From: Candidatus Woesearchaeota archaeon
GTDB lineage: Archaea; Nanobdellota; Nanobdellia; Woesearchaeales; JAGVYJ01
NCBI GenBank assembly: GCA_018303315.1
Contig: JAGVYJ010000031.1
Coordinates: forward strand, 1 to 24,479
Length of the DNA stretch: 24,479 bases
Direction: 5' to 3'
Of this stretch, positions 14,965 to 23,170 are shown piece by piece. Made by a program: the position numbers and the translations under genes. The notes under the pieces are model-generated. The model was not told where the DNA came from and ran no database searches. It worked only from the letters and a program-made list of their open reading frames with translations. The number at the start of each line of letters is the position of its first letter. Position 1 is the first letter of the stretch.

Positions 14965-15091
14965 CGCCGGCGCCGGGAGTTTCAACCAAGCGATTGTAAC
15001 CCTCTGTTAAACCGAAAAGTATTTGAACCCGGATGTCTTATTAGACACTAGGCTCTCAACCTAGCGGTCGACCAGATTGACCGTCGCCGGC
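14965..15091 (-). tRNA. Class II tRNA, anticodon GAG (nominally Leu) with Ser-type body and T-loop intron
   Basis: Minus strand folds fully: acceptor GCCGGCG/CGCCGGC plus G73; D stem GGTC/GACC; anticodon stem CTAGG/CCTAG with loop TTGAGAG; variable arm TGTCT-AATA-AGACA; T stem CCGGG/CCCGG with TTCAAA^T after intron removal. CCA not encoded. Confidence 0.92.
14979..15021 (-). other. 43-nt tRNA intron at position 59/60 with bulge-helix-bulge motif
   Basis: T stem, 3-nt bulge AC^T, 4-bp helix TTCA/TGAA, 3-nt bulge AA^T, inner helix ACT/GGT. Cutting after the second bulge nucleotide restores the T loop TTCAAAT. Confidence 0.88.
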
Positions 15092-15114
15092 TTATTTTTC
15101 AGCAGCAACTAAGT

Positions 15115-15126
15115 CTTATTAAGCTT
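15115..15126 (-). promoter_or_regulatory. Putative BRE-TATA promoter of the tRNA gene
   Basis: Minus strand reads AAAG-CTTAATAAG ending 23 nt before G1. Confidence 0.45.
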
Positions 15127-15185
15127 TGACCATAAATTTCCGAAAAATTTGCGGAAGTTATGAATTAAGGTTATTGGCTAGAAAT

Positions 15186-21142: not shown

Positions 21143-23170
21143 ATGGATGCTGTTCAGATAATAGGCAGGATTGAGGAATTCCTCAGCGGGGAGCTTTACA
21201 GGAGGAAGATTCTGAAGGCAGTGACTAAAGGCAAGAACTTCCTTGTTGTTGATTTTGCCGACCTTGTGAAATTCGACCACGAGCTTGCTGAGATACTTCT
21301 GGAAGATCCTGAAGAGACAATCAAGGCAGCTGAGCTTGCGGTTGAGAACTTCGACTTCCCTGCCGAGGCCAGGAACTTCAGGATACGCTTCAGTAACCTT
21401 CCTGAAAGCCAGCATGTGCTCATCAAGGATATAAGGGCTGAGCACATAGGCAAGTTCCTGACTTTTGACGGCCTTGTAAGGCAGAAGTCTGATGTCAGGC
21501 CGCAGGTCACATCAGTGAGGTTTGAGTGCCCTGCATGCGGCAACATAATCCCTGTTCTCCAGCTTGAGCAGCAGTTCCGCGAGCCGAGCAGGTGCAGCTG
21601 CGGCAGGAAAGGGAAGTTCAGGATTATCAGCAAGGCCCTTGTCGACGCGCAGATGATTGTGCTCGAGGAAGTGCTTGAATTGCTTGAAGGTGGCGAGCAG
21701 CCAAAGAGGATGAACATTTTCCTGAAAGAGGACCTTGTCAGCCCGCTTACTGAAAAGTACACCAACCCGGGAAGCAAGATTCGGGTAACCGGCATAGTCA
21801 AGGAAGTGCAGAAGGTTTTAAGGACAGGCACCAAGAGCACAACCTACGACTTGCTTATTGAGAGCAATTACGTGGTTCCTTTGGAGGAGGACTATTACGA
21901 GACCACGATAAGCCCTGAGGAGGAGCTCCAGATAAAGGAGCTTTCCCAAAACCCGAGGGTTTATGAACTGCTTATTGCTTCAGTTGCACCAAGCATTTTC
22001 GGCTATGACGAGATTAAGGAAGCCTTGCTCCTGCAGCTGATGGGCAGCGTAAGAAAGGAGCGTTCTGACAAGATGTCCACAAGGGGGGATTTGCACATAC
22101 TCCTTGTCGGCGACCCGGGAAGCGGGAAAAGCCAGCTCCTGAAAAGGATAAGCCAGGTTTCCCCGAAAGGAAGGTACATAGGCGGGGGCCGCGGTGTTTC
22201 TGCCGCAGGGCTGACTGCAGCGGTTGTCAGGGATGAGTTCCTCGGCGGCTGGAGCCTTGAGGCCGGTGCACTTGTGCTGACAAACAACGGCCTTTGCTGC
22301 ATTGATGAGATAGACAAGATGACTGTCGAGGACAGGAATGCAATGCACGAGGCACTTGAACAACAAACAGTTTCCATCTCAAAAGCAAATGTGCACGCAA
22401 CACTGAATGCAAGGACTTCTGTGCTTGCCGCGGCAAACCCGAAGTTCGGCAGGTTCGACCCCTTCAGCACCATTGCAGAGCAGATTGACATGCCGCCTAC
22501 TCTCATCAACAGGTTTGACCTCATATTCCCAATAAAAGACCTGCCTGATGAGATAAAGGACGAGAGGGCAGCCAGGCACATACTGCGCCTTCACCAGTCC
22601 CCTGACGTTATCGAGACAGATATATCAACTGCCTTTCTGAAAAAGTATATTGCCTATGCAAGGCAGAATATAAGGCCGGAGATTACTGACGGGGCGCTGC
22701 TGGAAATAAAGGATTTCTATGTCCAGATGCGCAACCAGCAGCTGCAGGATGAAAGGGTGGCAAGGACAATCCCGATTTCACCCAGGCAGCTCGAGGCCCT
22801 TGTCAGGCTCTCAGAGGCCTCTGCAAAGATAAGGCTCGCAGACAAGGTCACCAGAAAAGACTCGAGAAGGGCCATAAAGCTTCTTACCTATTGCCTTTCC
22901 CAGATAGGACGTGATCCGATTACAGGAGCCATTGACATAGACCGTATCACCACAGGCATCCCTGCAAGCCAGAGGGACCGCATCTTCACGGTAAGGGACA
23001 TAATCAACGAACTCGAGCAGAGCATTGGCAAGATAATCCCGATTGATGCCATCCAGAAGGAAGCAGTGAACCGCGGCATGAAGGAAGAGGATGTGGAAGA
23101 GGTTATAGAGAGGCTTAAGAGAACAGGCGACCTTTATGAGCCCAGGAGAGACCATATATCGAGGGTGTAA
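21143..23170 (+). CDS. mcm: MCM replicative helicase (no intein)
   Basis: Zn finger CPACG...CSCG, Walker A GDPGSGKS, GLTAAVVRD, Walker B CCIDEIDKM, HEALEQQTVSISKA, arginine finger NRFD, sensor 2 SPRQLEALVRL, C-terminal wH. Confidence 0.98.
   Translation: MDAVQIIGRIEEFLSGELYRRKILKAVTKGKNFLVVDFADLVKFDHELAEILLEDPEETIKAAELAVENFDFPAEARNFRIRFSNLPESQHVLIKDIRAEHIGKFLTFDGLVRQKSDVRPQVTSVRFECPACGNIIPVLQLEQQFREPSRCSCGRKGKFRIISKALVDAQMIVLEEVLELLEGGEQPKRMNIFLKEDLVSPLTEKYTNPGSKIRVTGIVKEVQKVLRTGTKSTTYDLLIESNYVVPLEEDYYETTISPEEELQIKELSQNPRVYELLIASVAPSIFGYDEIKEALLLQLMGSVRKERSDKMSTRGDLHILLVGDPGSGKSQLLKRISQVSPKGRYIGGGRGVSAAGLTAAVVRDEFLGGWSLEAGALVLTNNGLCCIDEIDKMTVEDRNAMHEALEQQTVSISKANVHATLNARTSVLAAANPKFGRFDPFSTIAEQIDMPPTLINRFDLIFPIKDLPDEIKDERAARHILRLHQSPDVIETDISTAFLKKYIAYARQNIRPEITDGALLEIKDFYVQMRNQQLQDERVARTIPISPRQLEALVRLSEASAKIRLADKVTRKDSRRAIKLLTYCLSQIGRDPITGAIDIDRITTGIPASQRDRIFTVRDIINELEQSIGKIIPIDAIQKEAVNRGMKEEDVEEVIERLKRTGDLYEPRRDHISRV

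Follow-up and report, generated by a model that had tools for sequence, protein, structure and literature searches.

A tRNA gene with a serine-type body and a leucine (GAG) anticodon arm in a Woesearchaeota-like archaeon, and its family of mismatched class II relatives

Introduction

Transfer RNAs whose body and anticodon do not match are raw material for genetic-code change and for programmed mistranslation. In the CTG-clade yeasts (Candida), CUG has been reassigned and is rare at conserved leucine sites, and the tRNA-Ser(CAG) carries G33. In this yeast tRNA, m1G37 reportedly leads to some leucylation, and variants with A37 are said to accept serine only. The nev-tRNAs of nematodes are extra class II tRNAs with a body/anticodon mismatch; they derive from tRNA-Leu, are charged with leucine, tend to read rare glycine and isoleucine codons, are weakly expressed, form lineage-specific families and coexist with the standard code (Hamashima et al., 2012; PMC3333845). 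The allo-tRNAs of bacteria, which were found by metagenome mining, are serine-identity tRNAs with a long variable arm, diverse non-serine anticodons and a defining 8/4 or 9/3 acceptor/T-stem geometry, and may serve either in missense suppression or as regulatory RNAs (Mukai et al., 2017; PMC5389517).

In this study, we describe a tRNA gene with anticodon GAG (hereafter the GAG tRNA) in a 24,479-nt stretch of archaeal DNA (the window), together with the family of odd class II tRNAs to which it belongs. Mismatched class II tRNAs are already known from CTG-clade yeasts, nematodes and bacteria; the present family is archaeal, and a limited full-text search of the literature found no paper on it or on an archaeal body/anticodon mismatch. 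Like the Candida tRNA-Ser(CAG), the GAG tRNA combines a class II body of predicted serine identity with a leucine (CUN-box) anticodon, and position 37 may matter in both. Distinct from the yeast case, the host uses CUU and CUC more than any other leucine codons and still reads them as leucine, a canonical tRNA-Leu(GAG) is kept, and the GAG tRNA has U33, a bulge-helix-bulge (BHB) intron in the T loop and many archaeal paralogues with other anticodons. With the nev-tRNAs it shares the extra class II status, the mismatched anticodon, the lineage-specific families and the standard code, but its body is Ser-like and it would read very common leucine codons. The likeness to allo-tRNAs lies in the Ser-type long-arm structure with non-Ser anticodons; the GAG tRNA differs from them in its 7/5 rather than 8/4 or 9/3 geometry, its archaeal origin and its intron.

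Materials and methods

The window was searched as raw DNA with ARAGORN and Rfam. The host genome assembly (G000) comprises 746 kb in 76 contigs, with 48.6% G+C and 76% completeness, and the nearest named relatives of its MCM protein are Woesearchaeota. Standard tools recovered about 15 tRNAs in this assembly, because many of its tRNA genes hold long T-loop introns, and further tRNAs were recovered by a structure scan.

A covariance model was built from six look-alikes of the GAG tRNA, and matches were collected across the order and in named 'Candidatus Woesearchaeota' and Nanoarchaeia assemblies. For the family set, the matches from the order and from the named assemblies were pooled and deduplicated, which gave 47 distinct odd members with 7-nt anticodon loops from Woesearchaeota-like genomes.

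The BHB cleavage rule was calibrated on the canonical intron of the tRNA-Leu(GAG) of the same genome, and placed the intron at position 59/60. The minimum-free-energy fold of the 127-mer is not a cloverleaf, and it was dropped in favour of the comparative structure.

Results

Structure of the GAG tRNA gene and its intron

The features of the locus, in window coordinates, are as follows.

14965..15091, minus strand: whole pre-tRNA gene, 127 nt, class II, anticodon GAG, one intron (covariance model R1, 117 bits)
15022..15091, minus strand: exon 1, tRNA positions 1-59 (spliced-gene call and BHB motif), running from the acceptor 5' strand and A8 C9 through the D, anticodon and variable arms to the 5' strand of the T stem and the UUCAAA part of the T loop
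15048..15064, minus strand: anticodon arm CUAGG-UUGAGAG-CCUAG; anticodon GAG at 15055-15057, then A37 and G38
15033..15047, minus strand: variable region, 15 nt, with a 5-bp stem, a 4-nt loop and one 3' nucleotide
14979..15021, minus strand: predicted intron, 43 nt, at position 59/60, with an hBHBh' motif
15024-15027 paired with 14981-14984, minus strand: central helix of the BHB motif; bulges at 15021-15023 and 14978-14980
14965..14978, minus strand: exon 2, with U60, T stem 3' strand, acceptor 3' strand and discriminator G73 (14965); CCA not encoded
15092..15185, minus strand: upstream region from the pheT stop to the tRNA, with TATA-like TTAATAAGA at 15114-15122 (about -27)
15130-15147, minus strand: upstream block TTTTTCGGAAATTTATGG, common to GCCGGC-type relatives

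Once the 43-nt insert is taken out, an 84-nt tRNA remains, which ARAGORN calls tRNA-Leu(gag). It has a GCCGGCG/CGCCGGC acceptor stem with a G discriminator, A8 and C9, a D stem of four pairs (GGUC/GACC), a D loop with GG (G18 G19), a CUAGG/CCUAG anticodon stem closing the 7-nt loop UUGAGAG (U33, GAG, A37, G38), a CCGGG/CCCGG T stem and the T loop UUCAAAU; the acceptor/T-stem geometry is the standard 7/5. The cloverleaf, G18 G19, U33, the UUCRANY-type T loop and a stem-bearing variable region longer than 10 nt place it among class II tRNAs. The initial annotation had read the GAG anticodon with A37/G38, the acceptor, A8/C9, G73 and the long variable arm, and all of these are in the sequence. 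On the raw window DNA, neither ARAGORN nor Rfam returned a match to the gene, at the gathering score or at E values up to 10, because the intron masks it.

The insert forms a strict 3-4-3 BHB motif, in which a 4-bp helix (UUCA/UGAA) continues the T stem between the bulges AAU and ACU, and a further 3-bp helix lies beyond the bulges. Together, this motif (14978-15027) and the single splicing endonuclease (EndA) gene of the host (one PF01974 match, C24:15230-15490) predict splicing. BHB introns at non-canonical positions, which require a broad-specificity splicing endonuclease (endonuclease types are summarised in PMC5829648), occur in Thermoproteales and ARMAN/DPANN archaea with the same strict 3-4-3 form, and the intron is in this respect an ordinary part of the finding. 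It differs from other archaeal BHB introns in that its 5' sequence, ACUUUUCGGUUU, is kept across the paralogues and genomes of the odd family.

Soundness and conservation of the gene

Four public DNA runs from three studies (groundwater and soil) gave independently assembled contigs in which the gene has the same sequence throughout, also in the anticodon arm, and it is therefore not an assembly error. The 700 nt examined show three strain differences, and every one lies outside the gene.

Among 30 related genes, every helix covaries: pairing is seen in 93% of cells and both-side changes in 26 of 33 pairs, intron helix pairs included, values that were reached by none of 500 shuffles. Compensatory changes occur in intron helix h', and the BHB motif is kept in the 30 relatives, which come from distant families of the order. 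The strong covariation of the stems and the conserved BHB motif thus argue that the odd tRNA genes are not decaying pseudogenes. Judged from sequence comparison, the extra tRNA gene is real, conserved and intron-containing. A PheRS-beta search of metagenomes for the locus returned 100%-identical copies alone and no close orthologues.

A serine-type body

The body carries G73, G30-C40 and a 15-nt variable region laid out like that of the host tRNA-Ser(GCU); the length of its D loop is Ser-like, and GCC stands at positions 1-3 as in Ser tRNAs. Profiles of the tRNA body, with the 17-nt anticodon arm masked, were built from 24 canonical Ser tRNAs and 6 Leu tRNAs of the order. On these profiles, a rough stand-in for isotype models with a small Leu set, the GAG tRNA scores 40.3 bits as Ser and 10.4 bits as Leu. 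As controls, Leu tRNAs score a median of 23.5 bits on the Ser profile and Ser tRNAs a median of 10.2 bits on the Leu profile. A preference for the Ser profile is likewise seen in each of the 24 odd relatives tested.

Reported determinants for archaeal LeuRS are A73 and the variable-arm loop, those for archaeal and bacterial-type SerRS are G73 and then G30-C40, the change of A73 to G73 turns leucine into serine identity, and G37 is a leucine determinant in yeast (PMC9976931); these rules derive from Haloferax, Methanosarcina and bacteria rather than from DPANN enzymes. The GAG tRNA has G73 and a variable arm unlike the Leu arms of its lineage. Compared with the canonical Leu(GAG), it shows G73 for A73, A37 for G37, and another acceptor and variable arm. 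Compared with the canonical Ser tRNAs of the order, it shows an anticodon from outside the Ser set (GGA, UGA, CGA, GCU), the four-pair D stem, A8 and G38. The body of the GAG tRNA is, on these sequence features, serine-type, as first proposed.

A leucine-type anticodon arm

The 17-nt anticodon arm matches that of the canonical Leu(GAG) of a 100% complete relative (G043) at 16 of 17 bases, and the sole difference is G37 to A. Among the 60 tRNAs called by ARAGORN in G043 and the host, the CUAGG/CCUAG stem is shared only by Leu(GAG) and Leu(CAG); the arm of the host's own Leu(GAG) differs by one base pair. A comparable case is the odd GAA tRNA of another relative (G007), whose loop, CUGAAGC, equals the canonical Phe loop of G043. 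The GAG tRNA joins a Ser-type body to a Leu(GAG)-type anticodon arm. By analogy with the yeast tRNA, its A37 would fit avoidance of LeuRS.

This origin is favoured over the one put forward in the initial annotation, a one-base slip of a Ser(UGA) loop: the arm is that of the Leu(GAG) of G043 apart from position 37, and the gene belongs to a large, mostly A35 family rather than being a one-off.

Ordinary tRNAs and charging machinery of the host and its relatives

A normal Leu(GAG) with A73 had been proposed as a check, and it was found at C56:3089-3186 of the host assembly, with acceptor GCGGGGG, G37 and a small canonical intron. The host also has Leu(CAA), Ser(GCU), Ser(GGA) and Ser(CGA), the three Ser tRNAs all with G73. 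The proposed companion check for Ser(UGA) had another outcome, as the structure scan did not find this tRNA in the 76%-complete host assembly; relatives retain a normal Ser(UGA) beside their odd tRNAs. The complete relative G043 combines four Ser tRNAs with five Leu tRNAs, all A73, and its class I tRNAs include Ile(GAU), Phe(GAA) and Val(GAC); six odd class II tRNAs occur on top of these complete Leu and Ser sets. Since the canonical Leu, Ser, Ile, Phe and Val tRNAs are present beside them, the odd genes are extras and not replacements. The Leu tRNAs inspected in the host, G007 and G043 all have A73 and a conserved Leu-type variable arm, and the relatives' acceptors are GCGG-type, which disposes of the concern that Leu tRNAs with G73 and GCCGG are routine in the lineage.

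All 141 genomes that gave a SerRS match have a single full copy, of the bacterial type, and the second matches in a few of them are fragments or weak partial matches. The host SerRS gene is a single copy at C68:19215-20459. No extra delivery factor was found in five genomes compared, which hold EF1A, EF2, aIF2-gamma and aIF5B only. With one SerRS per genome and the usual four EF-Tu-like GTPases, no private charging or delivery machinery for the odd tRNAs was found in these genomes.

Codon usage and genetic code

Genome-wide, CUU and CUC make up 47% of leucine codons and 4.4% of all codons. Against 114 homologues, the 29 CTT and 15 CTC sites of MCM align with leucine at 76-77% of residues and with serine at near zero. 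In the MCM motif ILLVGD, CTC CTT encode LL, and in both PGL motifs of TBP, CTT encodes L, in agreement with the examples listed at the outset. Reassignment of CUY, which had been judged unlikely, is ruled out by this alignment and by the high usage of CUU and CUC; the cognate codons do not behave as the reassigned codon of CTG-clade yeasts does. CUY is decoded in the standard way in the host genome.

The family of odd tRNAs

The anticodons of the 47 family members are GAA (13), GAU (9), GAG (7), AAG (5), CAG (5), UAG (2), GUC (2), and GAC, AAC, GCC and UAU (1 each), so that the leucine anticodons GAG, CAG, AAG and UAG account for 19 of 47. A35 is found in 44 members, U33 in 45, G73 in 44 and A37 in 35, the latter irrespective of position 36. 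C38 occurs in 29 of 47, and C38 or G38 in 34 of 47, compared with A38 in all 17 canonical Ser tRNAs. The loop UUGAGAG is also present in one other assembly. As predicted from the anticodons, the family would mostly read NUN codons (Leu, Phe, Ile, Val) with a Ser-type body. Copy number varies widely between genomes, with up to 19 covariance-model matches in one genome.

A few members have anticodon loops of 8 or 9 nt (G058:C1:52293-52407, L149:6956-7072 and L154:3995-4105; UCUGAAAC, AUUCACACC and AUUGAAACC) and are candidates for frameshifting or quadruplet reading if active. At eight loci of other subtypes (L062, L047, L042, L040, L052, L035, L060 and L063), the 70 nt directly upstream contain a degenerate copy of the gene's own D, anticodon or variable arm, which is separated from the intact gene by some 35 nt of spacer that includes a TATATAAA box. 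These partial copies suggest that the family spread by partial tandem duplication.

Promoter and genomic context

Of 28 canonical Ser genes, 22 have a TTTAWA box some 30 nt upstream, as against 2 of 25 GCCGGC-type odd genes. The latter have in common a block with TTYCNG repeats, together with a weaker box of the TTAA type and an A-rich leader, and the upstream repeat is similar to the conserved sequence at the 5' end of the intron. The GAG tRNA lacks the TTTAWA box of ordinary tRNA genes and carries the TTYCNG-repeat block at 15114-15147. A genome-wide search for the motif TTTYCGG gave about 0.5 matches per kb, with no informative clusters and no regulon. There is no oligo-T terminator directly 3' of the gene.

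The pheS-pheT genes stand 94 nt upstream of the GAG tRNA on its strand, and SecY, L34e and a glycosylase-like gene are further neighbours. Around the relatives' copies the neighbours are unrelated, an integrase being one of the ten flanking proteins, and the flanks of the GAG tRNA and of these copies hold unrelated housekeeping genes and no partner gene. A mobile-element location of the GAG tRNA copy is ruled out by its housekeeping neighbours. In G043, some 200 nt separate an odd class II GAA tRNA (C13:21113-21221) from the canonical class I tRNA-Phe(GAA) (21423-21496), both on one strand; the position of the GAG tRNA directly downstream of two PheRS subunit genes recalls this pairing, and the parallel may be coincidence.

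Discussion

Our preferred reading, held tentatively, is that the GAG tRNA is a functional supernumerary member of its family, charged by SerRS and responsible for weak or conditional Leu-to-Ser substitution at CUC and CUU. The single host SerRS would charge the GAG tRNA with serine, and EF1A would bring the serylated tRNA to CUC and CUU codons, where it would compete with the canonical tRNA-Leu(GAG). The unusual promoter, which has no consensus TATA box, and the A37-bearing loop would keep this competition weak or conditional, and the outcome would be a low-level or regulated substitution under an unchanged genetic code. The GAG tRNA appears built to decode because its arm copies that of Leu(GAG), the GAA loop of the G007 relative equals that of Phe, and A35 and U33 are kept in the family. 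CUU and CUC are common and stand at conserved leucine positions, and efficient serine insertion would therefore be costly. A8 in place of U8, an unmodifiable A37 beside G36, and G38 may make the GAG tRNA a poor ribosomal substrate. Anticodons differ between relatives, so the codon that is read seems weakly constrained. As the targets are the commonest leucine codons and are still read as leucine, either the activity is tightly limited or the tRNA has a job other than decoding.

Such a job could be that of a processed tRNA-like RNA which is rarely or never used by the ribosome and which serves as a decoy or sensor for enzymes that recognise A35 loops (anticodon nucleases, class I synthetases), as a serine donor or as a regulatory RNA. 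We hold this to be doubtful. The family loops are unlike those of all canonical tRNAs there, given the C38 or G38 of 34 members against the uniform A38 of the 17 Ser tRNAs and an A37 that ignores position 36; a few loops have 8 or 9 nt, this copy has A8, the promoter architecture is the family's own, and copy number swings up to 19 model matches per genome. Allo-tRNAs have likewise been proposed as regulatory RNAs and linked to toxin-antitoxin loci (PMC5389517). Nevertheless, the arm copies a working Leu(GAG) arm, U33, G18 G19 and the T loop are intact, and the flanking genes are unrelated housekeeping genes with no partner among them. The near identity of that arm to the canonical one, and the leucine anticodons of 19 of 47 members, could also point to a second, harmless tRNA-Leu(GAG), if the LeuRS of the lineage tolerated G73 and a Ser-like arm, perhaps by reading A35 or the Leu-like anticodon arm; for nematode nev-tRNAs, also class II, charging follows the enzyme that fits the body and not the anticodon (PMC3333845). 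Charging with leucine is nonetheless improbable: the canonical Leu tRNAs inspected in the host, G007 and G043 keep A73 and the Leu-type variable arm, A73 is the key archaeal leucine determinant and its change to G73 confers serine identity, A37 replaces the G37 reported as a leucine determinant in yeast, and on the Leu profile the body scores no higher than Ser tRNAs do.

The multiple copies and variable anticodons of the family, the degenerate partial repeats of the 5' portion of the gene just upstream of it in some relatives, the one copy that adjoins an integrase, and the combination of A8 with no clear terminator, unusual for a working tRNA gene, would all suit a neutral or selfish, fast-duplicating copy with no cellular role, that is, a structured pseudogene or a mobile tRNA-like repeat. 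We regard this as quite improbable, since the stems show strong covariation, distant families of the order retain the BHB motif, the base at anticodon position 35 departs strongly from randomness, this copy sits amid SecY, L34e and PheRS, and the three strain differences within 700 nt all avoid the gene. Very improbable, finally, is a slipped tRNA-Ser(UGA) that would still read UCA, read four bases or shift the frame. The canonical Ser(UGA) loops of relatives (CUUGAGA) do share the hexamer UUGAGA with the GAG tRNA loop, and Ser(UGA) was not recovered from the 76%-complete assembly. The register is, however, fixed by five perfect stem pairs that covary in relatives, and the arm is one substitution away from Leu(GAG), whereas its derivation from Ser(UGA) would take two substitutions together with an insertion and a deletion, which makes a slip unlikely. 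In addition, the CAG, AAG, GAU and GAA loops cannot be derived by a slip, and relatives hold a normal Ser(UGA) alongside their odd tRNAs.

Beyond the preferred reading of this one locus, Woesearchaeota-like archaea might keep separately promoted, fast-evolving, serine-accepting tRNAs that imitate Leu, Phe and Ile anticodon arms for a regulated, proteome-wide statistical decoding of hydrophobic codons as serine, with the ordinary SerRS and EF1A. We consider this extension somewhat doubtful. If true, it would be the first natural system of deliberate mistranslation by tRNAs in Archaea and a standing pool for codon reassignment. The locus itself adds a chimera with a Leu arm, a profile test of the body and a promoter contrast with canonical Ser genes. 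Standard tRNA finders miss such genes, and tRNA inventories and code predictions for DPANN archaea are therefore incomplete.

Some observations were also made on the ordinary tRNA genes of the host. The tRNA-SeC(tca) with an intron that ARAGORN reports at C36:265-397 is, by hand, a tRNA-Arg(UCG) with a long canonical intron, and the program mis-calls the canonical Leu(GAG) on C56 as Phe or Pro; isotypes assigned automatically are unreliable in this genome. Many ordinary tRNA genes (Ala, Gly, Ser, Tyr and others) hold T-loop introns of 100-190 nt that belong to one sequence family, for example at C65:11904-12085, C25:9371-9550, C27:5355-5618, C13:3255-3488, C47:7167-7393 and C44:2317-2537. A terminal palindrome (TGTGGCAGNCTGCCACA type) and, internally, a GTGGGA...TCCCAC hairpin mark these introns, and about 15 of 20 genomic copies of the palindrome lie within or beside tRNA genes. 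The family looks like a mobile intron element that targets the T loop. Intact genes for tRNA-Pro(CGG), tRNA-Pro(UGG) and tRNA-Gln(UUG), at C10:637-845, C12:5561-5784 and C4:10759-11030, each have their 3' end, from the T loop to the discriminator, repeated 135-170 nt downstream. The palindrome-bearing element lies, inverted, between each of these tRNAs and its duplicate 3' end, and the arrangement resembles either the footprint of an insertion or an alternative 3' exon.
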